A stretch of 62,338 bases of DNA, filler included, from Dugesia japonica (GCA_001938525.1; 5 parts of 5 records of this genome joined end to end with filler, not necessarily neighbours in it); one strand, 5' to 3'. Counted from the first letter of the whole stretch, positions 10,364 to 39,960 are shown. A program made the numbers and translations. The notes: generated by a model from the letters alone, not told the origin.

Positions 10364-10917
10364 ATTATAGAAAACCAAAAAAACAAATTTTGATCGAAGA
10401 ATTTATTTTAATGAATATATATAAATAAAAATATTGAAAAAATAACAAAAACAACTAACTGTCTAAATTTTAAAAAATATAACATCCTGATTAAAATTGC
10501 TGGCTCATTTTAATTGACATTCTGTTCCAATAGCAGAGAAACAATCTCTAGGTACCATAATTTCGTGCCATATCCGGTCATCCATGTCTATAAGAACTTC
10601 TCTCAATCAGTCACTCGGAATTTTAAAATACTTAGTTTTTCATGAAGTAACTGAAATACTTTACGTTGCAGAGAAGCGAAGAAATTATCAATTAAATTTA
10701 TCAATGTTATTTTAACTATTAAATGATTGAATTTCTAAATATTTTTTATTTTTTGATCCGATGAATGAAAAAAAATATAAAAATTTAAAATATAATTAAT
10801 TTTTCGTTTGAATTTTTCTAAAAGAGAATTAATTAATTCTCTTGTTTTAAATAATAGCAAAATTTTGAACAATATTAAATTTCATTTAAATGTTAAATAT
10901 TTATGACAAAGAAAATT

Positions 10918-11017
10918 NNNNNNNNNNNNNNNNNNNNNNNNNNNNNNNNNNNNNNNNNNNNTTAATTAATTAANNNNNNNNNNNNNNNNNNNNNNNNNNN
11001 NNNNNNNNNNNNNNNNN
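10918..11017. other. Artificial scaffold-joining spacer N44-TTAATTAATTAA-N44
   Basis: Exactly 44 N + TTAATTAATTAA (stops in all six frames) + 44 N; identical at four sites. Confidence 0.97.
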
Positions 11018-12539
11018 AATTATTTAAAACAATGTTTCTAATTGTTTGTCTGAAATAGGAAATTTAATTTGAAAAGTTTAAGTATTCAAACAAATATGTG
11101 AATAGTCATTTTCATAATTTTTTCCAAATATTTAAAATTTCAAAATTTTGGTCAAGATTTTAATTATGCATACAAGTTTGAAATTAAACAATTCAAATAT
11201 CCTTCTCAAAATCCACATTTATTAATATTTTTAAGCTTTGAAATATTAAATCGATGTGCTTTATAATAAGTATAAAGAAAATTTACACGTACGAGTCTGA
11301 TTTAGTGTAATTAAAAAATGTGAATTGATGCCCACAACATACTTTCCTTGCCAAATGTGATGCACAAACCCAGAAAAATTGAACAACCCTGCACTCGAAT
11401 ATTCTATGATTTTTAATAATGAAAAAAATAATTTTACCAATTTCAAAGAATTTTTTAAAATGAATTGATAGCAATTTTTGGCACTTCACACATACAATTA
11501 TCATACATTTATTTTCAGTTCATTTTGGTAATTGCGCTTTTTCTCGGATTTTTAGTTCCAAAATTTGATTATAAATAATAATTTCTCTAGATTTATTCTT
11601 TAATTTAATCAATAGTTTTGATATAAATATTCTATTCGGCTACCGACAAGTGGTACCAAATTAAATGAAATACATAATTTTTTAATCACTATAAATTTTC
11701 TAAAATTTCATAACTTTATGGATCTTATAATTATATAAAAACACAACTAAACATCGTTCGACGTGAACCATATTTTTAGAATGGATAATCAAAAGTTGTA
11801 ATTGAGACTAAAAANNNNNNNNNNNNNNNNNNAATGACAATGATGAAAGATGTCTTAATAAATCCTGAAATATTATATATTGACAAAACTTTATGAAAAA
11901 AAGACTTCTCAATAGCTTTCTTACAGTTCGAGTTCATTATATAATTTACGAAGTACATGTTTGTATAATACCCTCTTATTTTTGCAGCCTCTATTTATCC
12001 GAAGATATTACTGAAAGATAACACTAATAAGCATTCTTCATATTTTAAAATATAAAAACACAAAACAGCCCAAGGTTTTACCTTGTAATATTTCAGGCCT
12101 GAAAGTAAATATATCAATTTTTTGTATAATTCAATTTTTTTGTATAATAGTTAAATTCAAAACTTCACAACTCTCCATAAATTGTATTTATTACAAGTGT
12201 ATTTGATTAAAATAAACATTATATCATGAATAATTCATAGTATTCAGACAAATAATATGATAATACATAAAAATTTATAAAATATTTTTAAAATATCGAC
12301 TTTTATAATTTAATGAAATATTTAATTTTACCTAAAAATTTCATTAAATAAATTAAAAATATCGACTTTTTTATTTTATGAAATCTCTAATTTTACATAA
12401 AAATTTAATAAAATATTTTAACTAATAATTTCATATAAAAATTAAAAATATCGATTTAATTTTATGGAATATTTTATTTTACATGTTTTAAAAATAAATT
12501 TAAATATTATATATATATATATATATAAATTAAAGAAAG

Positions 12540-15188: not shown

Positions 15189-15232
15189 GTGCTTATTTAA
15201 GATATCTTTCAAATAATGAATCAGTTTTGTAG

Positions 15233-15522
15233 AAATCACACAATCTACTGAAGCTCATATATTAATAGGCAATCGTAATATGATGAAAGAAAATCATATA
15301 TCTGTTCCGGAAAATTCAGATTTAATGATGTCAAAGGATGAAGACAAAGGTAGAACAGTTGTGTTGATGGCTGTTGATAAAGTTTTAATTGCCATGATTT
15401 CTATTGCTGATCAAGTAAAAAAGGAAGCTTCATTAGTAGTATACATTTTAGAGAAAATGGGAGTTGATGTTTTTCTTCTAACGGGTGATAATCGAAAAAC
15501 CGCAGCTGCAATTGCCAAAGAA
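15233..15522 (+). CDS. ATP7: Internal exon of copper-transporting P1B-type ATPase (ATP7A/B homolog), N/P-domain region
   Basis: ILIGNRNMM...EDKGRTVVLMAVDKVLIAMISIADQVKKEASLVVYILEKMGVDVFLLTGDNRKTAAAIAKE closely matches ATP7A/B; AG at 15231-15232, GT donor at 15523. Confidence 0.92.
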
Positions 15523-16836
15523 GTAAAATATAATTAATATAATTTTTGTTACACTAAATTATTTTTGAATTTTCAATGTTAATTGTAGTTTAATTATAAA
15601 TTTTTATTTTTATTTACAATAACACAGTGTTACAAAAGATTTCAATCAACCAGTAACAATGCGTTGATATTTGTCGTGTTGATCCATAAGACTAATTTTT
15701 TAAATTTTTTTAGTTTGAAACATTCCCGACGATTTTTGTTTGATTAAACTCCATTTTATTTGGTTTAAACAAATCGAAATTGATCTCCGTGAATCGAGAA
15801 AACTATATTTTTGCCGTTGTTTGGGAATATCAACGTTTCCATAATGGAAACATGTTTTAGCGACCTCTGTTTATGTACTCGATTAAACTCGATCAATAAA
15901 ATATCACCTACTTATTCATTCTTATTAACTTGAAACATCATTTTCATTAGCTAAATTAAAATTATTTTTAAGCAATAAGCTTGAAAACTTATCAATTACT
16001 TGTTTTAAAATGGTATGTTTATTTATTGTATATTTAGTGAAATTAAACAAACTGTAAATATTGTCAAAGTTTTTAAGTTAATAAAATATGCATCTTGTAA
16101 ATTCTTGTGTATAAAATTGTTTAAGTATGAAAATTTATTTAAAGTTTAACTTTTAATTTAAGATTGAAAATTTATTTTTAAATTCGGTTTTCTACATTTT
16201 AGTAGTTTAGTTTCTAAAAATAAACTTTAAGTGATGAAATTTTGTAAATTTATAAAATTTGTAAATTATTATTGTATTGTTAATTTATTTACATTAATAA
16301 TAATAATTAAAATTTGGGAGTCTCTATATTTTGCATTGGACGGGCAGTCTATAAATTCCCAGGCACGTGTTGCTGTATTGCATTTATTAATAAAAAACGT
16401 TTGCAGTTTTGATATTTTTGGCGCGAATTTTTAAAATTTTTTTGGTGGGAAATTTCAAAAAAATTTCTTTTTTTTCTATCCACTAGCTTTTTTGATGGTT
16501 TAATTAACAATCACGTCCGGGAGCATCGGTTGTCGTTCTTTGTCAAGCAACCCTCGTTTTTCCAAAATATCTGAGAATTGCAAAATTAAATTTATTAAAA
16601 AAAATTTACAAATTAATAAATGTCCAACCTGTTTTCATAACATCGTCTTTAAAATCTTTCAATGTTGATTTTCTTGCATCCATTTTAATTTAATTACAAT
16701 AAATAATAATGAAATGTTATATATATATAATAAAAAACCACAACGTAATATATAAATTATTTGAAATTTAAATATCTAAATTTAAATTGATACTTTTTTT
16801 TACTTGAATTGTACATGTATCTGTGTTTCGAATTTT

Positions 16837-17424: not shown

Positions 17425-18000
17425 AATGTTGGACCCAGTGGTAGCAGGAAAACTTTGCTTGTAAGTCAATTATTGAAATAAAATTTATTTAAGTCTAAAT
17501 TTAAAAACATATAGGGGAGGAGCATGGATTGACTAAATCTGTATTTTGTAATATTAAAATAAAAATTATAAATGGTTTTGATAAAAATTTGATGAAAAGA
17601 GTAAGACCAGGTGATACTATTGTTGTTGATGATCTTTATCAGGAGGTGAACAAAGAAAAAGATTTCAATAATTTCTTCACAAAGATATCAAGAAATCGTA
17701 ATATAAATGTGATATTTATTACACAAAATCTATTTCATCAAGGTGGTAGTCATAGAATTCGTAATTTAAACGTGCAATATTTGGTTCTATTCAAAAATCN
17801 NNNNNNNNNNNNNNNNNNNNNNNNNNNNNNNNNNNNNNNNNNNNNNNNNNNNNNNNNNNNNNNNNNNNNNNNNNNNNNNNNNNNNNNNNNNNNNNNNNNN
17901 NNNNNNNNNNNNNNNNNNNNNNNNNNNNNNNNNNNNNNNNNNNNNNNNNNNNNNNNNNATATATTCAATCCAAATGATATCAGAGTATATAAAGAAAATA
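17425..18000 (+). pseudogene. Maverick/Polinton A32-like DNA packaging ATPase
   Basis: Walker A VGPSGSRKT (G>R) at 17431-17454, Walker B TIVVDD, FTKISRNRNINVIFITQNLFHQG...LNVQYLVLFKN signature; partly in an N gap. Confidence 0.88.
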
Positions 18001-18278
18001 GTGAATTTTTCCTAATATTACAAAAAATGACAAAATTAAAGAAATTTGTATTTGATCAAGTAACTGATGGTGTTGTTAAACGCTAAAAAATGTCTTTCCA
18101 GAAGAGAAAGTATGGAAAAAATCAAAAACAATCGCATAAGAAACATCATGAAAATAAAAGGAAACAAATGAATATGTTTAAAAACTTGCAAAGAGGAGTG
18201 GAAAGAAACAGAGAATGGTGAACAGAAAAATTATTATTATAAACAAATAAATGGTATGTATTATTTTAATAAATAAAG

Positions 18279-18533
18279 ATGAGATTAAAAAGAAGCATTC
18301 CGTTTCTTACTGCATTGATTAAATCATCAAAACCTTCTAGAATGAGAATTTTACAATCATTCTCAACATATGTTATAGACGATTTACTTGAGATTATTAT
18401 AAATATTGTTCGTGGCAATGTAGATTTGAGTGCAGCCAAAAGGAAAACATTGAAGAAATATAAAAGAAATCTTAATTAACGCTTGAAAACACAAAAACTA
18501 GAAAATCAATTAGACGAGTAATGAATAATCAAG
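18279..18533 (+). pseudogene. Conserved small basic Maverick protein
   Basis: PFLTALIKSSKPSRMRILQ....VIDDLLEIIINIVRGNVDLSAAKRKTLKKYK fits the Maverick L..L....R..IL...I..I.E...N...GNV.L......L.K.K pattern. Confidence 0.7.
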
Positions 18534-19004
18534 NNNNNNNNNNNNNNNNNNNNNNNNNNNNNNNNNNNNNNNNNNNNNNNNNNNNNNNNNNNNNNNNNNN
18601 NNNNNNNNNNNNNNNNCAATGGTTGACTTTAATATTATTAGTTTCAATAAAATCAACTCAAATGAACAATGGATAAATTGCAACCATTACCTATCTTTGA
18701 CCTGATATTTGCATCGAATAGTTGTAATGAAGACAAAAATGACGACAATATAGACGGATCCAAAGAACCCAGTAGGTTTTTAAGGCTTAGAAATGTTGAT
18801 GAAAACAGCTCAAAAAAGGCAAAGACAGACGAAAAAGTGGTTATAGAGTCAGCTAGTGTGCAGTCCGAACAAGTCAATCTTGAAAAGATTTCCAACAAGA
18901 GCATAAAAAGCATATGATATTGATGATCTATGNTAAATACATCTAATGGAAATGATTCCACATTCAAAGATTAATAAAGTTTACAAGTATATTTTTGTCA
19001 TTTA

Positions 19005-19110
19005 TCGTTGTATTCCATAGATTTGCAAGAGCTGCTCTATTTTAGGGAATTGAAAGAATAAACAATACTATGTAAAATGGTATGGATACGAAAAGTAAGT
19101 TGGATATTAA
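19005..19110 (+). pseudogene. Maverick integrase C-terminal chromodomain fragment
   Basis: KQYYVKWYGYE..SWI. Confidence 0.6.
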
Positions 19111-19140
19111 CAATACAAATAGACAATCAAGACAAAAAGT

Positions 19141-19302
19141 ACGATGAAACCAAATAATTTCTATACATTTCTATACTTCCCAATTTACATGGATGGTAGT
19201 TGGGAAGTTGCAATGATGGATTTAACCTCTGTATATTCAGCCATGCCGATTTACAGTCAATCTTGGATTGTGTATGAATTACTTAAACCAATTGAGAAAT
19301 AA
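19141..19302 (+). pseudogene. Maverick minor capsid (penton/PX) N-terminal fragment
   Basis: KPNNFYTFLYFPIYMDGSWEVAMMDL matches the PX pattern N..S.F...L..PI.L.G.WEV.L.E. Confidence 0.72.
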
Positions 19303-19525
19303 CTAACAATTGTTGTTAACCATAAAGAAAAACAGTTCTTTTAACGGTTACTAGTAAAGACAAATATCAAAATAATAGCGAAACACTTATACAATTAAAG
19401 AACAAAAATATGTTATTCTTTAGTAGTGATATTAAATTACATAGTTTATTATTTGATATTTTATAATTACAATTATTGTGAGAATAATTGTTGGACTTAA
19501 CCATTGATCGGATTTGAGATTTCAT

Positions 19526-19625
19526 NNNNNNNNNNNNNNNNNNNNNNNNNNNNNNNNNNNNNNNNNNNNTTAATTAATTAANNNNNNNNNNNNNNNNNNN
19601 NNNNNNNNNNNNNNNNNNNNNNNNN
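19526..19625. other. Artificial scaffold-joining spacer
   Basis: N44-TTAATTAATTAA-N44. Confidence 0.97.
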
Positions 19626-20041
19626 CTCTTTTTACTTTAACACCTATTTCTATTTTTGAACACTGTTCACATGTTAAACCGGCAGCTCCAACTATGTTTA
19701 TTTCAGCCTGTTCCAACTCCCTACCTATTTCTCTTTTTGTTTCTGCTAACTGATCCTATACTGCTCTTAAACAATAATAACATGATTTTATTAATCGACT
19801 CTTTATTAATGGTATTGTTGTTGATTTGATTTCATTACATAGTTTACATCGGTTTTCACTATCGTTTACGTTTGCTTTTGGGCTAGCAGTATTCATATTT
19901 ATACTTTGTCTTGACCTCAAAGGATATCTGTTTTCGTCATTAAAAATTTCCGGTTTTTTATTTTTTTGTTTTTGTTTCTTTATTTCTGTCGAAAGATCTA
20001 CTTGATCGATTTTTGGTTCTTCATCTGTTGCCGCCGCTAAC
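19626..20041 (-). repeat. Diverged duplicate of the gypsy post-integrase Cys-rich tail
   Basis: Closely similar to 20217-20581 with scattered substitutions; continues further with CKLC..CYYC..AAGLTCEQC. Confidence 0.85.
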
Positions 20042-20340
20042 NNNNNNNNNNNNNNNNNNNNNNNNNNNNNNNNNNNNNNNNNNNNNNNNNNAAGTATACA
20101 TAAACACTTTGACCTTGAAAAAAATTTCCCACCAATCACAATCAAGTATACATAAACACTTTGACGTTGAAAAAATTTGATCTTGAGGGGGAGGGGTGTT
20201 TATGTGCGCTAGGATCTATCTACTTGTTCCAACTCTCTACCCATTTCTCTTTTTGTTTCTACTAACTGATCATACACTGCTCTTAAACAATAATAACATG
20301 ATTTAATTAATCGACTCTTTATTAAAGGTTGTTAATTTTA

Positions 20341-21728
20341 TTAATTTTTATTAATTGTTGTTGATTTGATTTCATTACATAGTTTACATCGGTGTTCACA
20401 ATCGTTTACGTTCACTTTTGGTCTAGCAGTAATCATATTTATACTTTGTCTTGATCTCAAAAGATATCTGTTTTTGTCATTAGAAATTTCCGGTTTTTTA
20501 TTTTTTCGTTTTTGTTTCTTTATTTCAGTTGAAAGATCTACTTGATCGATTTTTGGTTCTTCATCCGTTGTTGCTGCTAACTTGCATCTTGACACCTGCA
20601 CAAATCTTGGTTTCTTTAGTAGATTCCCTACTTCTTTCACTTTTAAATTCGTAGTTGTGATATCCAATACTACATAGAGACCCTTATTTGGCCATTTTAA
20701 TTTGTTTGATGTGCCAACCTCTATTGATGGTGTATTTACCAAAATTAAATCTCCGATTTTAAATTCATGTGGTTTGGTATCTCTGTCATATAGTTCTTTG
20801 TAACTCACTTGAAAGAATTTTGCATTTGATTTTGCTAATTTCCACAAATCTTCCATATGTTCTTTAATACCAGTCACATAATCACTTTCTTCCATATACT
20901 GAAATATCGGTGGTTGATGTTCTAAATCAATCGGCATGTTGCATTCTCGTCCATACATCACTTAAAGGGTGATGCTCTTGTTGCCGGATGTACACCCATC
21001 CTATAAGCAAATAAACATAAGTTTAACTGTTTGNNNNNNNNNNNNNNNNNNNNNNNNNNNNNNNNNNNNNNNNNNNNNNNNNNTCTTGTTGCCGGATGTA
21101 CACCCATCCTATAAGCAAATAAACATAAGTTTAACTGTTTGTCCCAATTCCTTTGATAACTGGATACGTACGTCGACAGCATTCTGACTAGAGTTTGATT
21201 AAATCGTTCAGTCAGCCCATAAGTCTGCGGATGATACGCTGAAGTTCTCAATTTGTGAATGTTGAAGTAGCTTGTAATTTCCTTCATTAGCTCGCTAATA
21301 AAATGTTTTCCTTGATCCGTTAAGATCTTCTTTGGACCGTATCGACTGAATAATTTTTCTACCAACACCTTTGCGATTTTGTCTGCTTTTTGGTCTTTTA
21401 ACGCAAATGCTTCTGGATACTTTGATAGATAATCCACAACTGTTAATATATAAACTTTCCCATTATCTGTTTCTGGAAATGGACCCACAAAGTCCATTGC
21501 AATTATATCCATTCGAGCTAATGGTACTGGTATTGGTTGTAATGGTACCTTTGACTTCTTGCCAGTGCTCCTTCTTGCTGCACATACTTCATACCGATTT
21601 ACCCAATCTCTAACGTAAGTAGTAATATGCGGCCAATAATATTTCGCTCGCAATTTTGATTCCGTTTTCTTTGCAGACATGTGTCCACCCAATAATCCAT
21701 TGTGATACTGTTCCAATATTTTAGTCAA
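20341..21728 (-). pseudogene. Gypsy integrase (HHCC zinc finger, DDE core, GPY/F-like region)
   Basis: YHNGLLGGH...YYWP...(C>Y)EVC; IAMDFVGP, ILTDQG, SAYHPQTYGLTERFNQTL, HPATRASPF, KWPNKGLYVV. Confidence 0.95.
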
Positions 21729-21729
21729 T

Positions 21730-24700
21730 TTTATCCTTGATTATTTCAACAACCGGTAGTTTGCTCATGTCAAACTTCGCTACCGGTCTACTTTGGGTAA
21801 ATATTATGGGTGCTTGTTTAATCAAATATGCAATCGCGATTGCAATTCTTGTGGGTGATGGACTTCCTGCAATTAATCCATCTACTGCTTCTTTCGTTTC
21901 ACTTTTCAAAGTAACTTTTGTTCCTTTCAAAGCAGGTAATTTTGTAATTAACGGCTCCAAAATTGAAGCAATTTTTTCAGATTCTTCCGTTATTTTTGCA
22001 CTTCCAATCCACATCTTTAGTTCTGGATATAATTTTAATAAAATTAGATGTATTAGTTTTTCCGTTGTCATTTCTTCTGATTCCATTTGTTCTAACATTT
22101 CTTGTGATACAACTGTTAGTTGCTTATTTTGCCTCACGTTTCACTTTGTTACTTTTTCTTGATTTGAAATTCATTAACCGTTGATTCCTCTTGAGTTCCT
22201 ACATCTTGTATTCTTTTTTCTGTCACTTCGTCTGACACATTCAATTCATCTACCGTTTCATCTGCAATTGTTTGTAATTCGGGTAATATCGGCAGTTCTG
22301 CATCAATATCCACTTCTTTGGAATTCCAATTTAGAGATCCTTCAATCTTTTGACTTCTCATTTCTCTTTCTTTTTCAGGCTCTACTTGAGTTAACAAGAC
22401 CTCGTCGTTTTCTTGAGTTTCTGTTCCTTCATCTTCACTTTCTGTAGAAGATGAACTTATTGATACTCGTATTACTGTTTTTGCTGCAATTGTTGATTGA
22501 GTTGCCCAGTCTTTGGTAGGACGTTGTCCAGCCGTAAATCTGGGCTTTTCTGCTAATACGTTTGTAGTTAGTTTCTTCTTCAGCAATTCTTTACCCACCA
22601 CTGGTTGTATATATATTTTATTTGGATGTCTCACTTGCACATCCAATGTTCCAATGATATCTTTGTTTAATAATTCCGGATTAATAAAAAAAAGTGAATA
22701 TGGGAAATTAAATGGCAATTTATTTTTTAATTGATCCACTATTTCATAAGCCATTGTTTCCACTCGTGTTTCTAGGCCGGTAGGTTCAATTATTCTGAAA
22801 GTAAATTTGAGAAGCTTTTCTTCTTCCATCTCTCGATTTTGCCATTTAGTAATTATAATTTTAAATTGATTTGGCCTCCAATCACATTCTTCTTTTAATC
22901 CTGATATTTGATAAGTTAAATCTCTCTTAATGATAAAACTCTTTTAATGATAAATCACTGCTGATTAGTTGATCCAATAATTGTTGCACTTCTTGTTTTG
23001 GTAAATTCTCTTGTTTATTGATGGTTGCAAATTGTTGTATTAAACTTTGCATGTTTACAATATTGTATCTGTTTCTTGTTGTTGCTGCTGCTATTGACTC
23101 GCAAGGTTGGCTTATTGGACACATTTCTTCGCTCAATTGATCTTGTAATCTAGATCTTTGTTCAGGTAGTATTATCGCTACCGTTTCTCGTATATCAATA
23201 TTTATTTCCTCTCCATGTATCTGTAATCCCAATGGCACCTCCGGATTAATCTCACCGATAAACAACTGAATCGTTTTTCTACACAATGTTTCTCTTGGTC
23301 GTTTTTTAGTTTACGGATTCCTTTCTTGATCTTCTGCTAAAAACACGTAAACATCCATCATCGATCCAGGCCAAATACCTGAAACCTTTACTGATTTCTC
23401 CTCATTTTCCTCGTTGATCTCTTCTCCACAATATATAGCGATATCTTCCCTTTTAGTTTCTAAACCAATTGTCTTTCCTCTTGGCATTTGCTTGTTAATA
23501 TACTTCAGTATTTCATTTATTAATTTCTCCCAAGTTGTAGTTGTTTTAATCTTAAATTCCTTTTCTGATTCATCTTGGAAATATACTGTAACATTTACTG
23601 ATTGCTTTGGTATGTTTTTAGCATGTATTTCCACAAATGTATTAACTAATTCACAGAACATTTCTCCTCCAATTAATTTCAATTAATTTAATTGATTTAT
23701 TACTTCTTCTATCTTTAAATTTCGCATTTGTTTATAATTTTCCTTTATTACTATTCCTACCTTGGTTAATGCCAACCTATATGTTGTCCATGGTTCGATT
23801 TCTGTTGTTATTTCTGCTGTTGACTCAATTTTCTCATCTATTATATGCGTAAAGCAATCCATTCGATCTATTTCCGTCATAAATATTTCCCTCATTCTTG
23901 CACCAATTCTATGTATTGGCTGTATTCGAAATCTTTTTGACATTTCATCATCAAGTTCTAATGTCAATTTCGTTATTTCTTCTGGTCGTAATGTAAATTC
24001 AATTAGATGCTCATTAATCTCGTTTAATTTATCATTTTCTAATATCATATAATCACACGTTATTCTATATTTATTCAATTCCTTCTTCAATGGCAGTTCG
24101 CTTATTATATCTTTCAATTCTCTTATTGTTGTAGTTTGAAATTTCGTAATAGTTTTAGATGTCAAACTTGTTGTCGACCCTTTACCTTCGCTCATTACTG
24201 GATAAAAAATTGACACCCCAAAATCGGCTCCAAGAATTGTCTCTTTTATCAGATCTCGATAACTCTTTGCTATTTTTATCCATTTTCTTCTTTTTTCCCA
24301 ATTAATTTGAAAATGAAAACAAGCGTCGCATAATAAATTCATCATCTTCCAATAACTTTGTTTCGGAATAATCTCTTTCCAACTAATAGTAATTTTTACT
24401 AAATTATCCATTGCTTCTAAATATCGACTATTTTCTCACAATTCATCGTCACTCGTCACTAGTTGTTAACTCGATTCGCTATACATTTCTGTAGCTACGC
24501 TGTTTGCTTTCTTTTTATTTTTCTTTACTTTATTCAAAACTTTACTCGAAAACGCTCTCAACATACATATTTGGGCTTTAGGTCCTTCTTTATCTTCTGG
24601 CATTGAAATCGATGCTTGACTGTCGTAATTATTATATACCATAACGTTTTTTTATACTTCCCGTCTAATGATCTCATGATTTGCACTGTTGTTTGAAGAT

Positions 24701-26090
24701 GTAGATGTGACAGTACTGAGGCTTTAAATAAAAACAATCTCTCGCTTTCAAATAATATCACTTCAGTGGCACCATCAGGCTTCAATCCATAGCTGTAAAT
24801 GTGCTCATCTACCGCTTCTTTATTAACAATCCCAACTGGTGAACAAATTATATATTGTTCGAGTGGTTTTGGCCATTTTAGCTCATTTAATGCTTATAAT
24901 AATGCTTCCACGGTTGTATTCTTTAATGAAAATTTTTGAGGAATATTTTGGTATCCAAATCGATGATTGTATTTAGATATTTGTTCTTCCATCAAATAAG
25001 CCATATTCATACAATCATGTGCGGGTTTTATCGCTTCCATCCTACTAATTTTATAATCATTCGTAGTTGACTCTTCTAAAATTTCTTTTTCATATTCATC
25101 GATTATATACTTCCATTGTAATTTAGTTGTTACATCTATGTGTCCTGGCTCTGTTAACTCAACGATATGGTTCATTATCGACCAATACGTTTTTCGATCA
25201 ATCTCATATTTTCTTTTTCTGGTTCTTCTCATTATTGTATCGACATATTCTCTCATTTGTGATTGACATTTTATTGATGTTTTCATCTTTTCGTTCGTCA
25301 CAAGTTGATCCATCGTCATTTCCGTTCCCTGTTTTGTATTTTCGTCATTTTTTACTGAGTTCTTTGATGCTTTTGCTTTTTCTATCTTTTTCTATAATTA
25401 CCCTTTTAGCTAGTTTCTTTTGTCTGTCCAATAAAGTTTGTACTCTCATCGTATGCTTAAAAAATGTCTTTTCCAAAGATTTAATTATTTCATTTATTGT
25501 TCGATACTCAAAATGCATAAACNNNNNNNNNNNNNNNNNNNNNNNNNNNNNNNNNNNNNNNNNNNNNNNNNNNNNNNNNNNNNNNNNNNNNNNNNNNNNN
25601 NNNNACCGAAATGTGTTCTTTAAGATTATCCTGATCAATCACTCTTGATGATGAACATAGTACATATTCGTATAATGGTTTCGGCCACTGCAGTTCATTT
25701 ATCGCTGTTATCAACCCTTTGACTGTTGGTGCTTTAATTTCAATTTTTCTCATTATATTCTGATATCCACATGGTATGGATTTAGTTTCATCATTACTTG
25801 TTGCGTATATGTATCTCTCAATTGACGGTCCCGCCACTTTTGGATCGCCTGTAATCGATTTTTTCAACGGCTTCATTATAATGACTTTGTAATCCTCGGG
25901 ATAAGTTTCTGTCATCAATTCCACTTCATACTTTTCCGCTTGAGTCTTCCAATTCATTTTGGTAACTGCATCTACATCCTTTGATTCCACGAGTTCAATT
26001 AAATGATTNATTATTTTAAAATATGCTTTTCGCTTAATTACATCTCTAAAGTCTTCAACAAGTTCTAGTTTTTCTTCTATCTGTCGTTGA
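21730..26090 (-). pseudogene. Non-canonical Gag-Pol insert: three ~200-aa diverged tandem repeats plus SUMO/ubiquitin-like modules
   Basis: Same-strand ORFs linked by single stops or frameshifts; repeated RK.YW.IMNH..EL..W...YE and TT...L...I.EL...K.L..Y.IC...EHI motifs; SUMO-like VNVTVYFQDESEKEFKIKTTT at 23341-23598. Confidence 0.65.
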
Positions 26091-27844
26091 ATTGCGGGAT
26101 GATTTTCTAACGACTTATCGTCTAAAATCTTCTTGGAACGTATCATATTAATTTGTCCAGCATTAGAATTCTTCATTCCTCTTGCTCTCAATCTATCCTG
26201 AGCTATTTGTTGTTCTTCCAATTGTTGTCGCAGATACTCTTGCTCTTGNNNNNNNNNNNNNNNNNNNNNNNNNNNNNNNNNNNNNNNNNNTTGTAACATA
26301 TTTATTTGATGCTGAGTTTTGGCTCTGCTACTATTTATTTCCTGCTTTAATGCTTCATTTTGCTGTCTCATTTTCTCAATTGTAGGATTTAAATTTGGTT
26401 TTGCATTAAAGTTATTATAATTTGATTTATTACCGTCATTTCTGAAGCAATTTCTACTAATATCTCCTGACTTATTACATATATAACATACCGGTGGCTT
26501 GTTCTGAAAACAAGTTTCTCCATTATGCCCGGGTTTCTGACAAGTTGTACAAATTTTTATTGTTTTTTCTGGCGGTCTAGATTTGCACTCTCTTGCTCGA
26601 TGTCTAATTTTTCCACAATTATAACAAGTCATATTTGATGATTGCCAGTTCACTTGTTTGTTGTTATTATTATTCGACTTAAAATTATTCGTTTGTTCTC
26701 TCGTCTTCTCAGGTGATAGTGACTTCAATAATGGCTGGGCTCTTGGGATGAAATCAGATACCTTCACAACATCTTTAGTCTGTTCATTTTGCTCTTCTAT
26801 TTGAAACACTTTACCCACTTTTGGTTGACGAACGTCCACATTATGACATACTCTTGCCGAATTTATGGCCAACTCTACGGTTTGCGGTTGAGTTAAATGC
26901 ACATGTCTCTTTACGTCCGCATTTCTCAACCATTTTATAAATGCTCCAATAATAACTCCTTCATTAATATTATCTCCCATAGCTATTTTCCCAAGTCTTC
27001 GCAATTCAGCCGCAAATGAAATGATTCAACTTTATGCTGTCGTCTGTTCATAAAATCTTGCATTTCCCGACCTTGTAATGCAGATGCTTTAAAAATATCT
27101 AATAACAATGTTTTAGCTTCTTCCCAAGTTTTCACTTCTTTATCTTTCTCAGTGGCTTTATCCCAATAAATAGTTTTATTAGCTCCAACTAAATACTAGT
27201 GGTAAACGTTCTACTGCTGTTTCATCGCTCCAACGACATGCGTTGATATGAATTTCATAGTTTGTGATGAAATCGAGTATTTTATCTGGATCTCCGTCAT
27301 ATTTTTCACTACTGAAATCAGTTCTCCATTCTTTACGTTTATCGTCCATATCCGATGTATGTTGTCTACTATTTAACGACATTTTATTTAATTCTTTGAT
27401 TTGCTCTTGATCACTTCAATCTTCTGCTTCGCTCTCTGATTCCGAATTTGTTTGAAAATGCGACACAGGTACTGCGATATTTGCTTTATCGGCTATTGAA
27501 TTATCACTATATTCGCTATCTGTTATATTCGCTTCTACTATCTGATTCTGATTTTCAATTTTTGACTCTGTTTCTATATTTTCTCTTGATTCTAAGGATT
27601 TCCTTGTTATTTTTAAAGGAAAGCAGTTAGGTGATTGATTTGTTTCTGAGGATATTGGCTTTTTAGATGTCCTTGATTCCTTTCTTGTAAGTGATGATGC
27701 TCTTTGGGACTTTGCTTGGTGCTCTTTTCTACTTCCAACAATAGATCTCGTATAATATCTGGGCTTTTCCGAATCCTCAATGGCTATCGTAGTATAACAA
27801 GTGTTCTCTTTAATCTGTAATATAATAATATGCTGCCCTTTTCC
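26090..27844 (-). pseudogene. Gypsy Gag with capsid-like domain, three CCHC zinc knuckles and coiled coil
   Basis: EKYDGDPDKILDFITNYE...WSDETAVERLP; CYNCGKIRHRAREC, CTTCQKPGHNGETC, CYICNKSGDISRNC. Confidence 0.92.
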
Positions 27845-29042
27845 CTGAAATATAAAATAAAAGCCTTTCGGCCTATGCATATTAATTAGGAATAAATTAA
27901 TCAATTAGCCTTAATCTTAACTTATTCATTTCATCTAATATTACAATTAATGCTTATTTCCTAGTTTTTTAGACAATACTATCTTTTATGTAAAAATCTA
28001 CTTAACTCTCAAGATTAAATCCTACACATATCATTTTATTATTTTACAATATTATTCAATCTACCTTTACATGTTATGTTATAATACTAAAGTGTTTTTA
28101 ATTTAACTAAATCTTTTTAACTGGCACTTATTCAATTTATTATTTATTTATTTTCTTATATTTTATATTGCACTCTGATTATTACAAAATTTATTATATT
28201 ATCCCTATTTGGTTTTGCTTCTAATTTTTCTTTCAATTTGTCAAGATAATATTTCAAAATTTCTGTCTTCAAAATTAAAACCTTCGATTCTCTAAGTGTT
28301 GTTTTCTCGAATTTATGCGTAATTTTAACTAGATTCTACGATTCCTACTCCCATTCAGATTTTCTATCAAATCCCTTCTTCGTCTTCACTCCAAGAACTC
28401 AATGATTTTCTATAATCTTTCAAAAGTGTCAGCGAGTTTTCTTTCAAACCCAAGGTTTTCTTTCAAACTCAAGGCTTTCTTTCAAGCCCATTTCTAAAGT
28501 TCTTCACACTTAGTCCCAACTATTGTGTACTTCAAATAAATTAAACTTTCATAATTTTTCAAAAAGAAATAATTTTCTCAAGTTTTTAGATTCCCATACA
28601 AAGAATACTGCTTTCAAACTTTCCAACAAAGCAACTCCAAATTCTACAACTTTTCTTTCCTTCCGCCAAAATTCAAACATTTTCCAATAATAAAATGAAT
28701 ATGTGAAGTACCATGCTAACAAGGTATGTTAAAAATAACCAAAAAAAATGATTATAAATTTTTGTTTATCACTAAACTCTTCATATTAATATCTTTATCA
28801 TCGTTTAAAAAAATCTTTACAAGTTTTATTAAATTTTGTTAGGTAAATTATCAGGAGAATTCTCGCAATTTCAAAAATTTTTCAAAAAAATAAACACCTT
28901 GCAGAGTTGTGTAAGGAAAATAACATGCTAAATACTTTATTTTCAACAAATTGTAGTCATTAAATATGACATCAAAAGTTGTCATACATCCGAAGACAAA
29001 TCAAATCGCATTTGTCTTGGATGCCGCAATTGTTCAAAGTCG

Positions 29043-29429
29043 TCAAGTTTTTTCTTTCTTTACTCCTTCTTTAATGAATTTCTCCAGACATTTTGCTTTT
29101 TCATCTTTATCTTTCAGAAGAAACTCCATTCTTGCTACACCTTCGGCCAACCGGCTCATCTTCACCTTAAGGTCCTTGATGATCTCTCTCAACATAATGA
29201 CCTCTTTTCCAACTTTTCTCTGATAGAAAGCCACGCGCTGTCGGCGGGTGTATTCGAGGCAATTCTGGATGGTGAGCTTTGTAATGAGCTTCCGATGGAC
29301 GGGCCAATGGACCCAATATTTTCCATCCTGGTCAATGAAGTCATCATCATTATCGCTATCTGGTGGACTGCGCGTCAGGCTGGTGTTTGGCAGGGTTCTG
29401 TATTTTGTTTGCTTATTTTGGCTGGTCAT
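29043..29429 (-). CDS. Intact accessory ORF (128 aa from MTSQ) in the leader of the gypsy element, unknown function
   Basis: GC-richer open frame inside an AT-rich leader, same strand as gag; W-rich motif then coiled coil; TTATTGTAG acceptor-like site directly before the ATG. Confidence 0.5.
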   Translation of the reverse strand: MTSQNKQTKYRTLPNTSLTRSPPDSDNDDDFIDQDGKYWVHWPVHRKLITKLTIQNCLEYTRRQRVAFYQRKVGKEVIMLREIIKDLKVKMSRLAEGVARMEFLLKDKDEKAKCLEKFIKEGVKKEKT

Positions 29430-30907
29430 GCTACAATAAACATTTACCATTAAACACTGGTGTTACATACTCATATATCAAACCAATGATAGATATATAA
29501 CTTATTATAATGGGCTTGTAAATAATTGAAATACACCAAACCAACACAACTTGTAAACCCTACCCAAAATTGAAACTTCATTAGATATTCAAGGGTAAAT
29601 AATTTTATCATCAACTTTCATCATCATTAATGTTATCTTTTTATTCAAAGTAGAACAATTTTATATCCAAAAAGGAACCAATTTAACTATGTTAATCCAC
29701 ATTATCTTTAATATCGTTTTAAGGTGAATCAATCATTTTACAACTAATTTCAATTTTATTTTTCTAATCAGTATTAAAAACCACATTTAAAGGTGGATTT
29801 CATCATTACTTTATAATACTTTAATATCCCAATTCAATGTAGTCCATTGTTATGAAAATCTGGCTTTCATTTCATTTATCAAAATTTTACTTTCAATTTT
29901 AATTAATCATTAATTTATCAACTAACTATCTCTAATTTTATAATTTATTTTCTCTGGTTTAATACATTTCTACCACAAAATTTCTGATCTTATGTCGACT
30001 GTTTAGTTTGATTATTTCTTATTATTATCTCTTATGTTACTTCTTAGTTAAAACTAATTTCATTGCTTATATCAATACTCTTATATTATCATCCCAATTT
30101 ATTGTCACTCTATCTTACATTAACATTTTATACAGTGTAATTTTCATTGCTGCAAAGTCAAATTTATCTTTATCGTCATCAAGATCCTCTGTTAGTCCTC
30201 GTTTTATTTTTAATTGTTATCATTATTTAAAATTCCTCATAATAACCTTCAGTGTTTGACTCATGTTTCAGTATTATTTTAAAATCATTAATTAATAATA
30301 AAAATAAAATATTATCATAATTTATGACGAGTCACTTGTCTCTTTCTCTCATACTAATTTTTGTTCTTTATGACCAATTAGCAGAGAATCATAGCTCAAG
30401 TGATTCGCCATCTTATGTTAGGGAGTACATTGAGTGTATCAAAAGGTTTTTCTCTTTTTCTTTGTTTTAAGTATTATTAATAAACGTTAGCATTATCTTT
30501 TCATTGGGGTAAAACAATTTTATCTCAACATAAATCAATTTAAGTTTTGTTAGCCAATAAATAATTTCAACATAAGTTATAGATGAATCGATTTTACCAG
30601 AAATAAATCGGTGTCAATCCACATTAACTTCGACATCATTTCAAAGTTAATTCATTTTCAATAATAAAATATTCTATTTTATTTGTCATTTAACCACAGC
30701 TGTGCCCTCAACATTTCCCACTTTCAACAAAAGTTTCATCACTACTTGTTGACAATTTAGTTTTATCAATAAAATTTTTCTACGAATAAATTTATTAACG
30801 TTAATAAAATTTTCAATAATTTAATAAAACTATCCCATCTTATTTAACTTTTGATTTAAATAATGAACAGCAAAACAACAAACAAAATGTTTACGAAAAT
30901 AATTATT

Positions 30908-30925
30908 AACCCGGCTGAGCCCCCA
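30908..30925 (-). promoter_or_regulatory. Primer binding site complementary to tRNA-Pro 3' end
   Basis: Minus strand TGGGGGCTCAGCCGGGTT, 8 nt after LTR end CCCAACA; compare canonical Pro PBS TGGGGGCTCGTCCGGG. Confidence 0.85.
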
Positions 30926-30933
30926 AAAATACT

Positions 30934-31180
30934 TGTTGGGTTTCCACATGTTTTAAAATAATTTATTTTTCCTATTAGGGGCATACTCCTGAAAACCACA
31001 AGTATCTTAGCGTCGTGTGTCGCTTACACGCTCTCGGTCTGGTTCCGGTGACTCCTTGTTACGGGAGTGCAGTAACCGCCCCTTTAGTCTGGGTCCAGCG
31101 GACTAGAGTGTTAGTCCGTCTTAGGAATATGTTGTTTCTATTTATGTGTGATGCATTACTAACAGGACTTCAGTAACGTT
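30934..31180 (-). ncRNA. Structured LTR R/U5 RNA motif, copy A
   Basis: AAGAC-GGACUA/UAGUCC hairpin-GCUGGACC...GGGGC/GCCCC closing stem enclosing further hairpins; ends in CCCAACA. Confidence 0.55.
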
Positions 31181-31377
31181 TTTTTTCTTTTAAAAAAAAA
31201 ATAATAAAAATAAATGCAATTTCGTATCATTTATCATTTTATCTTATCATATTTATCATGTTTGCAAATTTAAACTCAAATAAAAAATTTATGATAAATC
31301 AGTATTTCATATATTTTATTTATTATTCAATTCATTTATAAATTAATAATAAAATAATAACTCCGTTTGATATTCAA

Positions 31378-31827
31378 AACTTTAATATTTTCATAACTGT
31401 TCAACACAAATAAAAATAATCTATTTCATTAATAACAAAAGAAGAAATTTCATGAAGACCTACACAAAAATCCAATAACCCTTTCTTATTTCACTATAAG
31501 TAAACTCGGATATCCTTTGGTTCTTCTCATCATAATTCAAAAATTCAATTAATTATCATCGTAAATTTTATCGTAAGNNNNNNNNNNNNNNNNNNNNNNN
31601 NNNNNNNNNNNNNNNNNNNNNNNNNNNAACTTTAATATTTTCATAACTGTTCAACACAAATAAAAATAATCTATTTCATTAATAACAAAAGAAGAAATTT
31701 CTTGAAGATCTACACAAAAATCCCATAACCCTTTCTTATTTCACTATTAGTACACTCGGATATCCTTTGGTTCTTCACATCATAATTCAAAAATTCAATT
31801 AATTATCATCGTAAATTTTATCGTAAG
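31378..31827. repeat. ~200-bp direct duplication flanking an N gap
   Basis: 31378-31577 vs 31628-31827 near-identical, few substitutions. Confidence 0.85.
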
Positions 31828-32029
31828 ATTTATTTGGTTTATTATTATTTTATTTCAAAGGGTTTATTTCTCTCATCTTTAATTTTAATTAATTAAATTA
31901 AGATTCATTTTCATTTTATCTAATTCTCTATTCAAAATTTTATTTTTCTAATTTTAATACTAAAATGTTTTTCGTGATTGATTTCATCTCGCATTGTAAA
32001 TTATAGATAAAATCTAATAATGATTTAGT

Positions 32030-32385
32030 GTGACAGTGTAATTCATTATCATAAAATCTACCTAAATTTTTTCATTATCTAAATCAGTAATTCCATAANT
32101 AAAAGGTTTTGTATTATAAACTTGAGTTACTACAAATACTTAATTTGTCCATTTAGCTGTAAATTCTTTTTCGAATTTGTATTTATATTTAAAGATTCTA
32201 ACTCGATATCCAATTTTAAATTTCTGTTTAAAACTAAAGTTATCATTTTCATGATTATGATCTTTGATTATTTCTTTTATTTTATCTGGATTTTCACTAG
32301 CTTCTTTTGGAGTTGTTTTTATACTGGAGTGAATTGTATTATTATAATCATTTACAATTTTATCCAACAAGATTTTATTTATTAA
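32030..32385 (-). pseudogene. Maverick-type integrase C-terminal fragment
   Basis: LDKIVNDYNNTIHSSIKTTP...KFKIGYRVRIFKYK..FEKEFTAKWT...TKPF.YGITDLDNE..LGRFYDNEL. Confidence 0.85.
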
Positions 32386-32752
32386 TTTTTTTTAAAATCA
32401 ACTCAAAAAATTTTTTAATTAATACAGAAAAGTCTTAGATATTTTAGATATACTATACTTAGAATTTTTTAATTTTAAATTTTTGTATTTTTTTTTTAAA
32501 ATTGTAATATTTTTAAAATAATTTTCAAAAAAATACATCTAACATCTAAATCTCCTTGATTTGTGTCTGGCAACTAACCTGATAATTCACCATAAATATT
32601 TTTATAAGTTGAACTAGTTGTTACAAAATTTAACATTGTAGATGAAATTTCTGGTTATTCTGCGTTAGCTCATTCTGTATTATTTCACTCTTCATTAGCG
32701 TTAGCGAATTACTAACCATTTTATTAATAAAATTTTGCAATACCTTAACTGT

Positions 32753-32810
32753 ACGATTACTATACGATTACTATACGATTACTATACGATTACTGCACGA
32801 TTACTATATG
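32753..32810. repeat. 11-bp tandem repeat (ACGATTACTAT)x~5
   Basis: Direct reading. Confidence 0.9.
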
Positions 32811-32833
32811 ATACGATACTATAACTAAAATAT

Positions 32834-32885
32834 TGTTGGGGTTTTACTCTAGGTGGGTTGAATTCTTGTATGATTCTTCTTAGGT
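32834..32885 (-). repeat. LTR terminus fragment, same family as the LTR ending at 57494
   Basis: tgttggggttttactctaggtgggttgaattcttgtatgatt matches the reverse complement of 57450-57494. Confidence 0.7.
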
Positions 32886-33861
32886 CTGAGTGCTTTGCTT
32901 TCTTTTCTGACGACCATTTTTTTTTAACTTTGAGTATACTTATTGCCACCCTTATTTCACCCCAACGATATTAATAAAATATTAATAATAAAAAACTACT
33001 GTTTTATTCTGATATTATATTTTTTCTTTTAGGATTTTATTTTTATTCTTTGTTTGTGTTAGCCCAATTTGTCTTTCTAACAGTTCAAGTAGTATGTAAA
33101 TGGTTTTTGGGTATCATCTTTCAGACAGGAAGAGAAGAACGTGAAAATGAAATAGTGAAGAAAGTACTCATAAAAAATTAAAAGCCTTGAAGCCCAACAG
33201 AGTTAAGCTTTTCTGTAATTTAATTCGGATGAATGATTTGAGTTTGTTGAACAGGTATTATCTTATCAAAAAGACAAGATCTGGAAATATAAACAGAAGA
33301 TCAGATCAGAAAATATATTTAAATTTAATGTAGAGATGCCACCAATTTATTCTTGCTGATCTTTGCATCTTTCAATGATAAAATTTAGATTAGTATTTTT
33401 GAGTTATAGATAAAACTTCAAACTTTGCACGATTATTATTGTTAGAAAAATATTATTACCATTATACTCTCAAGGTGTTTAAAATGTGTACTTACAAATT
33501 ATTTATATTCAAAAAGTGACCAAGTTCTAAATACAATAAATAATAAAATCTCGGAAATGCAGACAAAAACTGTCTATCAATGATTCAATTAATTATTTAA
33601 TATCACTTGTTATTTGTTTTAATAATATTAAAAATTCTTAATAATTATAAAAAATATTTAAGTTGTTTTACTTGTCATTTATTTGAAAGTTTATTAATTT
33701 TCTTTTACCGAACGGAAAGTAATTTCAGAAGTAAATTTGTATTTGCTTTACAAATCAATGTTAGACTTCAAATAAATAAAAAGACTTCAGTAATTAATTT
33801 TCATGGAAATAATTTTAGAAGTTTCATAAAAATTATTTTGTTAATTAAATTAATTGTTATT

Positions 33862-33865
<4 letters not shown>

Positions 33866-33926
<61 letters not shown>

Positions 33927-34016
33927 NNNNNNNNNNNNNNNNNNNNNNNNNNNNNNNNNNNNNNNNNNNNNNNNNNNNNNNNNNNNNNNNNNNNNNNNNN
34001 NNNNNNNNNNNNNNNN

Positions 34017-34083
<67 letters not shown>
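33866..34083. repeat. (ATT)n microsatellite spanning a gap
   Basis: Pure tatt/att repeats. Confidence 0.97.
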
Positions 34084-34084
<1 letters not shown>

Positions 34085-34530
34085 TAAGACCTTTACAATA
34101 AAATTGAATCCGTCATTTTCATTTCTATTTTGCACTGTAATTTCGAAATTGAAGTAAAAATTACTTTTGTACTTTTGCTTTCAATGTACTTGGAGTGCCT
34201 AATGAGAAATAACACAAACCCAACTTAAATGCAGAAAACTAATCAATTAGAAATGAATTTCGTGACTCGGAAATAAAGTATTTGTAGTTTGCAGTAGAAA
34301 TGAATGTAAAGATCTCATGATAATCGAAATAAAAGAATTATTTAAATTTAAGAAAATGAAATTTGAAAGAAAATTCTAAGGAATTGATAAATAGAATGAA
34401 TTTTTTATGTAGGAAGGAGATATTAAAATGTAATAATCAGTTTTTAATTAAGTATTTACTTTGTCTTAACAAACGTGTGTAGGAATTGTGTTAATATGAG
34501 ATTTGGAATTATTTTTTTGAAATTTTTCAA

Positions 34531-34650
34531 GTCAACGTTTATACTAGGTTGAATACATTCGATCTTGTTCAATCTCAGAAGTTAAGCAGCAGGAAACCTC
34601 GTTAGTACTATAATTGTGAACAGTGACAGCTGATTTCCAGTGCAAGAAAG
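34531..34650 (+). pseudogene. Degenerate 5S rRNA copy (pseudogene or SINE3 head)
   Basis: gtcaacg..atac....ttgaatac..tcgatcttgt.caatctcagaagttaagcag......cct.gttagtact aligns with eukaryotic 5S rRNA positions 1-80 including the box A region; 3' part diverged. Confidence 0.72.
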
Positions 34651-35675
34651 ATTCCACCACCTTGATTCTAGATTCTTACGTATTTAATGCGAAACTTGTT
34701 AGTCCTTTCAACGTCTCTTGAGTTTCTGCCTTAATAATTTTTCGAAACTTTCAGCATTAGATAGTCAAACTAATTCTGGTAGTTGATAATTAATAACATA
34801 TTTTTTTATCTTATGACATACATTAGAAAACATAACTACGCTACCATTAATTGGGTTTCTTCGGCATGTTTATGGCGGCGTGTTTAATACATGTATTTCT
34901 TTTTCTAAAATACAAGAAAGTTAGTATTTTGTAAAAGCATACATTTTCATTGAACTTTTAGATTGATATCAACAAGTGCATTCTCAAATGCAAAACGACG
35001 TGGAATACTACAAAACCAAAAGTTTATGAAAATGAACAAGAATTCAGTTTGGTTTAATTAATAAACAATTTATCATAAACTTTGAGTTTACACATAATCT
35101 ATTACAAGTAAGTCAGAATCAAATAAAGAGTTGTTTAAATTTGATAAAAAGAAATTAATGTAATTATCTTTTATCTCTTTATCTCCAACGGTTTCTAGTA
35201 TCAATTTGAACTACTTAAAACTTTGCGACGCACATATTAATTTTTATTTTACATAGTAAAGCATGATTTTAAATTTGAATCATATTGAATCTAAGTGTGG
35301 TTCAATGTTTAATAAACATACTCTCATTATCTCGTCTATAATTAACAAACGCTATCTCTTATTTAATTTCAATACACTTAGTAAATTTATAAACCAATTT
35401 AGAAAATCTCAGGCTTAACTGGCCTTTTGATAATTTTCCACGACACAATTTCGTGGCTTTTAATGCACAGAAAAATGAATTAATGAAAATCAAAGTTAGA
35501 TTTCGAATCCAGATTAAATTGTTGAATTCGTTTTGGGGACGCTTTTGGGACTGTTTTTTTTTTAAATTAGACTTTCAATTTTTATAAATCCCTACAAATT
35601 TTTGGTTTCTAACACAAATTATTTCTCATACTTCTTTTATTTTTGTTTTCAACACTAATTATATATATATATATA

Positions 35676-35775
35676 NNNNNNNNNNNNNNNNNNNNNNNNN
35701 NNNNNNNNNNNNNNNNNNNTTAATTAATTAANNNNNNNNNNNNNNNNNNNNNNNNNNNNNNNNNNNNNNNNNNNN
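35676..35775. other. Artificial scaffold-joining spacer
   Basis: N44-TTAATTAATTAA-N44. Confidence 0.97.
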
Positions 35776-35959
35776 AAATAAGAGTTTCTATTTCTCAACA
35801 AAAACAGAACTTAAAAAATGCCAACTACTCAGAAAAGATTATGATTGATTCCTGAAAAAAGAAATTCTCCTGAAAATGTAGACTTAACAGAAATGCAAAA
35901 AGAACTATACTTTGTGCATTGGAGTTCATGGAATTCTAGGACATCAGATAAAACTTGAA

Positions 35960-36330
35960 GCCTATAATACTGAAAGCTATCTTACTTTTATTCATAATAC
36001 AATTACTTTATTTCGATATTCATAAAACTGCAATCTTAATAATGAATAATGTGTATCTTCCTAAATCATTATTAGTGCTTCAAAAATTGAACTTCAAAAA
36101 TATTGCTTATAAATTTCTCATTCCATATCCACCAGAGTTTAATTCAATAGAGGAAATTTTCTCATTGATAAAATCAAAATACTATACTGTTAATACTGAA
36201 AACAGAATGACTTATTGATTGAAGTGTTTAGAAATAATTCTTTGCAGATCTAATAACTACTGCCAAGAGTCTCGAGCATTTTACAACAATAAGGTGGGTA
36301 GAAATAACTCTTAGAGGAGCTTTTCATAAA
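35960..36330 (+). mobile_element. IS630/Tc1-like transposase C-terminal fragment
   Basis: ILIMNNV..PKS...YKFLIPYPPEFNSIEEIFSLIKSK (compare MDNA..H...FLPPYSPELNPIEE.FS..K). Confidence 0.8.
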
Positions 36331-39189: not shown

Positions 39190-39495
39190 ATGTAATAGTG
39201 CTACCCAAAAATTTGAGACAGGCGATCATGTTACAATATTATGATGACACTCTCGGATGTCATTTATCAAGTCGTAAACGTTATCAAGAATTAAAATGAA
39301 ATATTATTAGAAGACAATGGACCAAGATATTAAAGAATAATGTAAAACATTTGAAACGTGTCTAACCAGGAAAAACACGGGCACAAAAATAAAGGTATCA
39401 CTAAGATCTATGCATGTACCATTAGCACCTAGGGAAATTACAGCAATGGATTTATTGCTCCTCTACCAGAAAAAGTAAACGGAAAATTCTATATC
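39190..39495 (+). mobile_element. Gypsy integrase zinc-finger fragment related to the 20341-21728 integrase
   Basis: IVLPKNLRQAIMLQYYDDTLGCHLS...KYY...ETCLTRKNTGTKIKVSLRSMHVPLAPREITAMD..PLPEKVNGKFYI. Confidence 0.85.
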
Positions 39496-39849: not shown

Positions 39850-39960
39850 TCATTAGGAGCAGAATGTAAAACAGAGCTTGAGAAAAATTACTACAAACTA
39901 TTGAACAACAGTTTGTATCGGAAATCGATAGAAAATGTAAAGAAAAGGAAGAATTTGCGA
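39850..39960 (+). mobile_element. Maverick protein-primed DNA polymerase B fragment (motif B)
   Basis: ECKTELEKNYYKLLNNSLYRKSIENVKKRKN (compare KLxNNSxYGKxxEN). Confidence 0.8.

Follow-up and report, generated by a model that had tools for sequence, protein, structure and literature searches.

Predicted tandem helix-bundle and ubiquitin-like units behind Gag in a decayed, probably Burro-type gypsy element from Dugesia japonica

What is encoded by a coding segment of more than 4 kb that lies behind the zinc knuckles of a gypsy retrotransposon and appears to contain ubiquitin-like and SUMO-like modules? We addressed this question for a Ty3/gypsy element from Dugesia japonica (GCA_001938525.1), recognised by its H2C2 and rve integrase and by its Gag with CCHC knuckles. 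The window, meaning the whole stretch of 62,338 nucleotides that was analysed, is eukaryotic scaffold sequence, rich in AT and interrupted by N gaps; the element occupies its minus strand from at least 29600 down to approximately 19700 (more than 9 kb, Gag included), in the order 139-codon open reading frame (ORF), Gag, three zinc knuckles, probable coiled coil, a 4.36-kb segment (26090-21730) and gypsy integrase. This copy is a decayed, internally deleted member of a multi-copy gypsy family. Our reading is that the segment encodes three tandem units, each predicted to combine a three-helix bundle with a ubiquitin-like (Ubl) part, and a likely SUMO-like domain, and that these modules would serve as docking sites for ubiquitin-binding and ESCRT (endosomal sorting complex required for transport) factors; our overall confidence, weighing anatomy and mechanism together, is roughly 0.5. 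The anatomy together with the family placement is in our view probable, and the mechanism alone is a tentative possibility.

Coding continuity of the segment

The segment (4,361 nt) can be crossed as coding sequence at a cost of 11 stops or frameshifts, whereas 53–70 breaks were required in 30 shuffled sequences and 53, 54 and 58 in three minus-strand control regions: the segment is decayed coding sequence whose continuity exceeds chance. The initial annotation had indeed described a frame of about 4.3 kb broken by isolated stops and frameshifts, and the peptides it quoted are present on the minus strand where it had placed them. Its description of this frame as an array of Ubl and SUMO-like modules some 1,450 codons long went too far: candidates with any support account for at most approximately 450 of 1,453 codons, with helical, linker or acidic sequence making up the remainder.

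Contigs of the family, obtained from 4 of 4 runs and mostly 90–95% alike to the window, are present in every one of the 30 bins between 19626 and 29600, with gag, segment and integrase at similar depth (contig depth being no measure of copy number). Because these contigs cover the segment evenly with gag and integrase, we assign it to the element and not to a nested insertion, as had been assumed from the outset. Of the 15 breaks that lie between the start of Gag and the integrase, at least 5 are places where family contigs among the matches listed depart from the window sequence; a single family ORF through the whole segment is likely, and full-length copies would encode one long polyprotein. 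In one raw RNA run, 43 reads fell on 2.4 kb, 42 of them less than 95% alike and most on one strand (library strandedness being unspecified), which indicates at most low-level transcription of diverged copies.

Tandem units and the SUMO-like domain

Directly behind the nucleocapsid knuckles lie three tandem units of approximately 270–280 codons each (period approximately 800–840 nt), which are 18–47% identical to one another (Table 1). Unit 1 matches unit 2 with 41% and 47% identity (E 5e-29), and unit 2 gave z-scores of 18.8 and 31.8 against unit 1 and of 8.2 and 9.1 against unit 3, with 0 of 300 shuffles reaching the score in each case. For unit 3, the AlphaFold2 (AF2) model is of low confidence (mean pLDDT 45), Ddi2 and Get5 were among the matches of the fold search, and none of 1000 shuffles reached the score of this unit against the Ubl profile of related elements; the second half of the unit is predicted to be a beta-grasp. 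Units 1 and 2 would have the same fold by homology with unit 3, and the triplet would have arisen through tandem duplication of one helix-plus-Ubl unit. An assignment of 24432-24200 to a protease or MATH domain was dropped, since the helical repeat occurs here for the third time.

No homologue of the segment was obtained with the SUMO-like ORF among proteins of 215–2,000 aa (0 of 183 candidates) or with residues of 22930-24432 among proteins of 1,802–5,737 aa (0 of 5,095), and phmmer with a single-frame read of 903 residues, approximately 260 of them off-frame, found nothing at E <= 0.001 among 1.84 billion representatives. Locus scans gave none of 155 in metagenomes with the SUMO-like ORF, none of 52, 6 and 55 in viral contigs and one weak locus among 101 in genome contigs, and NCBIfam and PHROGs gave no relevant match. 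Fold searches derived from a single-sequence AF2 model of 501 aa (pLDDT 31) were uninformative, and no joint alignment of the six modules was obtained. Judged from the sequence, the tandem triplication of helix bundle and Ubl part is the new feature of this element, without detectable homologue. A cassette of several Ubl domains, or of MIT and Ubl domains, is undescribed for retrotransposons in the accessible portion of the literature searched, although planarian repeat annotations (Repbase, supplements) may cover it.

The units are followed by a domain at 23341-23598 whose best Pfam match is Rad60-SLD (PF11976; E 0.0039, 17.4 bits against a cut-off of 23.8, profile positions 2–33 of 72). The top PDB sequence match is SUMO2 (E 0.48), the Rad60-SLD cluster ranks third in the ESM Atlas (score 0.85, a lead only), and 1 of 1000 shuffles reached the score against a profile made from the relatives alone. 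Weak but consistent, these matches make the SUMO-like fold proposed by the initial annotation likely. Its Ub-like domain at 22593-22814 was not confirmed: no ubiquitin-family match was found in Pfam, NCBIfam or PDB, 185 of 1000 shuffles reached the profile score, and a similarity to a region of the related polyprotein P0004 (z 2.8, 2 of 200 shuffles) is one among 51 comparisons. As to further candidates, those within the tandem repeats would correspond to the Ubl-like parts of the units, whereas 21950-22125 was not confirmed as a Ubl domain, with 918 of 1000 shuffles reaching its score. The latter stretch is possibly more Bcl-2-like than Ubl, judging from motif spacing and the domain order of Burro elements: the spacing within the surrounding helical domain, which is cut by the deletion described below and gave no Pfam or PDB match to Bcl-2, fits the Bcl-2 helix-1, BH3 and BH1 patterns. 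Likewise without support as a Ubl domain was 23755..23985 (minus strand), which was modelled as helix and coil (pLDDT approximately 30), gave no match and was equalled by 833 of 1000 shuffles.

None of the modules ends in Gly-Gly, in agreement with the initial annotation: the sole GG in seven scanned pieces lies at 23670, outside the modules, and the C-terminal di-Gly of conjugatable ubiquitin and SUMO modifiers is absent from them.

Relatives and layout of the element

Burro elements (Burro1-4/GYPSM1) are giant planarian gypsy elements with an ORF1 of 4,873 aa, for which the accessible text of PMC6431247 (Arkhipova and Yushenova 2019) gives the order Gag, three CCHC knuckles, Smc, MATH, PF11976 SUMO-like motif, BCL2, in-frame Env, protease (PR), dUTPase and reverse transcriptase (RT), RNase H (RH) and integrase (IN). 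BCL2-like, BIR and MATH motifs are reported there, MATH not being in frame in a Dugesia element, and a Ubi2/SUMO-like motif (PF11976) placed after Gag and ahead of BCL2/Env is thereby on record for Burro. The window element resembles this layout in its Gag with three CCHC knuckles (the third degenerate), probable coiled coil and probable upstream accessory ORF, and possibly also in a PF11976 SUMO-like motif, here below the cut-off, and a putative BCL2-like domain behind it. The part between the start of Gag and the deletion junction measures approximately 2,020 codons; with the missing Env-PR-RT-RH part and the integrase added, its size would approach that of the 4,873-aa ORF1. No MATH, BIR or ankyrin match to Pfam was found in the window pieces scanned, and no RING domain was seen in the window copy. 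By layout, set against the published description of Burro1-4, the family probably belongs to the Gag-Env-Pol giants of Burro type, which fits the kinship that the initial annotation had suspected. That annotation had left open if the array was previously described: the SUMO-like domain at this place is already known, so that the element extends a known architecture, whereas the three helix-bundle and Ubl units that precede it do not appear in the accessible text of PMC6431247, a figure of which marks tandem repeats.

At 21725/21726, high-depth contigs from both sides leave the window sequence and continue differently, for 2,019 nt in an X11 record on the segment side and for 656 nt in an X7 record on the integrase side; among the 16 pieces listed, of 126, none bridges the junction. 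The Integrase_H2C2 match begins only at position 7 of the profile, compared with position 1 in the related polyproteins P0002-P0004. The copy most likely lost at least approximately 2.0 kb at this junction, and the segment did not abut Pol; the deleted part probably comprised Env as well as the protease, RT and RNase H. None of the last three gave a Pfam match in 12 ORF pieces, nor were they found by tblastn with full polyproteins, which matched the element only at Gag, knuckles and integrase. The position between Gag and Pol that had been assigned to the modules is not confirmed in this copy: behind them only the integrase follows, across the deletion junction.

When 9 long proteins were compared by integrase, P0002, P0003 and P0004, all from metagenome assemblies, came out best (49–53% identity). 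They are giants of the order Gag-Env-PR-RT-RH-IN in which a fusion glycoprotein stands in frame between Gag and PR, and behind Gag each has a helical region as well as a single domain that matches ubiquitin variants (E 0.03). Equally close (53–56%) are 4 of 14 metagenome loci (L001-L004); L003 and L004 carry ORFs with ankyrins and exonuclease, and in L003 an accessory ORF at 10906-11517 specifies a clear ubiquitin-like domain together with a helical domain that by eye is TFIIS-N-like. A 12-row integrase tree, which omits P0007 and L005-L014 (11 rows) of a 23-row set, groups the window with P0002-P0004 and L001-L004 (support 81/74), while the placement lacks resolution in the 23-row tree. These relatives share with the window element a helical region, a ubiquitin-like domain and an acidic linker, in their case between knuckle and in-frame Env; they differ in having one Ubl domain where the window element has a triplet, and in their extra proteases, and they show no detectable sequence match to the window segment. 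The Gag region matches that of P0002/P0003 weakly by tblastn (E 0.006–0.007) and gave no match to Pfam retrotrans_gag. GAG-ENV-POL errantiviruses, described from Nematoda, Bryozoa and Platyhelminthes in the accessible part of PMC13524379, are likewise gypsy elements with Env between Gag and Pol, the window Env being expected in the deleted part; in the main text of that paper, as far as accessible, ubiquitin, SUMO and Burro are each mentioned 0 times.

P0002 and P0003 (3,771 and 3,761 aa) are single-ORF Gag-Ubl-Env-PR-PR-RT-RH-IN-PR polyproteins with a C-terminal membrane-anchored region and three protease-like domains each, and NCBI lists P0004, a polyprotein of this type, among the hypothetical proteins of bacteria, which is probably a binning error. 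Downstream of the integrase, accessory ORFs of L003 (7268-11517), L004 (6861-9920) and L002 (3712-5556) carry RNase T/DEDD exonuclease domains, ankyrin repeats and also a second protease.

Table 1. Features of the gypsy element in the window (positions counted from the first letter of the window).
Feature	Position	Strand	Basis and remarks
Probable accessory ORF, 139 codons, upstream of gag	29043..29462	-	Coiled-coil-like; no Pfam match; covered by family contigs
Gag N-terminus and capsid-like region	26700..27790	-	One stop and two frameshifts
Three CCHC-type zinc knuckles	26438..26632	-	Pfam zf-CCHC E 6.4e-6; third without His
Gln/Glu-rich probable coiled coil	26110..26400	-	By eye; N gap 26249-26290
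Repeat unit 1	25607..26104	-	Helical part 26104-25892 and Ubl-like part; cut by N gap 25523-25604
Repeat unit 2	24726..25262	-	Helical part 25262-25056 and Ubl-like part; one stop
Repeat unit 3	23950..24432	-	Predicted three-helix bundle 24432-24226 (MIT-like arrangement) and predicted beta-grasp 24222-23950
Likely SUMO-like (Rad60-SLD-type) domain, without di-Gly	23341..23598	-	Pfam, PDB, ESM Atlas, profile shuffles
Possible Ub-like domain, unconfirmed	22593..22814	-	By-eye resemblance
Acidic low-complexity linker	22150..22500	-	Sequence; P0002/P0003 have an acidic stretch between Ubl and Env
Helical domain, possibly Bcl-2-like	21760..22100	-	C-terminal side cut by deletion
Internal-deletion junction	21725..21726		Contig departures and clipped integrase zinc-binding match
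Gypsy integrase (zinc-binding domain, core, C-terminal part)	20578..21725	-	Pfam E 1.4e-15 and 8.5e-14; 52% identical to P0002
3' tail with CxxC..CxxC motif	19709..20581	-	Two tandem copies, 87% alike; short very high-depth repeat between them

No flanking pair of long terminal repeats (LTRs) or direct repeats was found in the window, where an N gap lies at 19526-19625 and family sequence extends past 29600; Rfam gave 0 matches over 18000-36000. The short repeat in the 3' tail (20094-20197) reaches a contig depth of approximately 81,000 in X1, far above its flanks, and is probably a miniature inverted-repeat transposable element or a short interspersed element. Near-identical direct repeats at 20976-21141, 31378-31827 and 39929-41042, the first two flanking N gaps, are probably scaffolding duplications, and an X11 contig joins across the first of them. 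Upstream of the element lies a GC-rich island (30990-31170; no Rfam match), possibly part of a leader or LTR. Elsewhere, the window contains other gypsy fragments (an RT/protease region at 48904-50580, minus strand, and an integrase piece at 39105-39457, plus strand), an ORF fragment adjoining an N gap (17505-18086, plus strand; PHROGs ATPase match, E 0.11), presumably resembling a Polinton/Maverick-type packaging ATPase, and at 15220-15537 (plus strand) an exon-like piece of a P-type, by eye probably copper-transporting, ATPase, which places a host gene near the element.

Possible roles of the modules

Beta-grasp domains without di-Gly occur in integral (type II) Ubl-domain proteins, among them Rad60/NIP45, Ddi2 and Get5, where they serve as binding modules. 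The window modules are likewise predicted beta-grasps without di-Gly; unlike those of the integral proteins, they lie in a transposon polyprotein, are each paired with a predicted three-helix bundle and lack a significant sequence match. Without di-Gly the modules would not be conjugatable and, by this analogy, may therefore be binding modules. Retroviral late domains lie just behind the nucleocapsid, and ubiquitin on Gag can drive budding. For the latter point, the literature searched gave no support, including the accessible part of PMC7828637. We favour recruitment of ESCRT because the units adjoin the nucleocapsid, the lineage has Env and the Ubl part is paired with an MIT-like bundle: the modules would be built-in, non-conjugatable docking sites through which the Gag particle would attract ubiquitin-binding proteins and ESCRT trafficking factors of the host, the Ubl parts standing in for ubiquitination of Gag and the MIT-like bundles binding ESCRT-III, so that enveloped particles would be helped to bud. 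A more specific version, in which the triplicated MIT-like and Ubl unit of an env-bearing giant gypsy element forms its own ESCRT-III-binding, ubiquitin-mimicking surface from captured host folds that replace late-domain motifs, appears decidedly unlikely.

Other roles have to be weighed against ESCRT recruitment. The modules could help to keep the host cell alive, Ubl and Bcl-2-like domains shuttling or protecting substrates (proteasome, p97, E3 adaptors). A putative Bcl-2-like domain behind the modules, the related motifs of Burro (PMC6431247) and a second-hand report, in the accessible part of PMC13465017, that Burro1 B-IAP shields planarian stem cells from apoptosis speak for such a cassette; it is nevertheless doubtful, as the Bcl-2 label is without tool support and neither BIR nor RING was seen in this copy. 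If instead released by a protease, the modules could titrate readers with SUMO-interacting motifs (SIMs), Ubc9 or SENPs, and so weaken SUMO-dependent silencing through Piwi-interacting RNAs (piRNAs) and H3K9me3. One module is SUMO-like, piRNA-guided silencing requires SUMO in Drosophila (PMC9406493) and PIWI represses BURRO1/4 in planarians (PMC8532177), both according to the accessible parts of these papers. However, this module is only one of 4–5 candidates and its Pfam match covers less than half of the profile, Gag-linked products of an env-bearing element would probably be cytoplasmic, and the accessible literature searched contained no transposon SUMO mimic; we consider such a decoy quite unlikely.

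The modules might also have no specific host target: the element would have captured domains that drift fast and serve for folding or as spacers, or are near-neutral, and tandem duplication would have inflated them. The low identity among units and the absence of detected homologues among the representatives searched would suit such drift, as would the divergence of the longest family contig from the window, which is approximately 10% over the segment (142 of 1,443 nt) and approximately 6% over the integrase (39 of 639 nt). A Ubl domain recurs, however, behind Gag or in an accessory ORF of several relatives and in Burro, which suggests repeated retention; we regard this account as unlikely. 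Very improbable, finally, is an origin of the locus as a non-autonomous gag, accessory and integrase element, as a Ginger-like DNA transposon that never had an RT at this place, or as a chimera in which two families meet at 21725/21726: this copy lacks PR, RT and RH, no LTR pair was found and no single record joins the segment to an RT, but contigs from both sides depart exactly at the junction, none bridging it among the pieces listed, and the zinc-binding domain of the integrase is clipped at its start. Moreover, Ginger1 transposons measure 2.6–7 kb and have terminal inverted repeats of 40–270 bp (accessible part of PMC2836005), in contrast to this element of more than 9 kb with Gag and with no flanking pair among the longest 25 of 91 inverted pairs.

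Published annotation covers approximately half of the Burro-type polyprotein, and the folded repeats predicted here provide concrete, testable domains in the rest. Binding of SIMs by the SUMO-like domain would make it a transposon-encoded counter to SUMO-dependent silencing; binding of ESCRT-III or of ubiquitin readers by the tandem units would reveal the way in which gypsy elements of the Gag-Env-Pol type exit cells.
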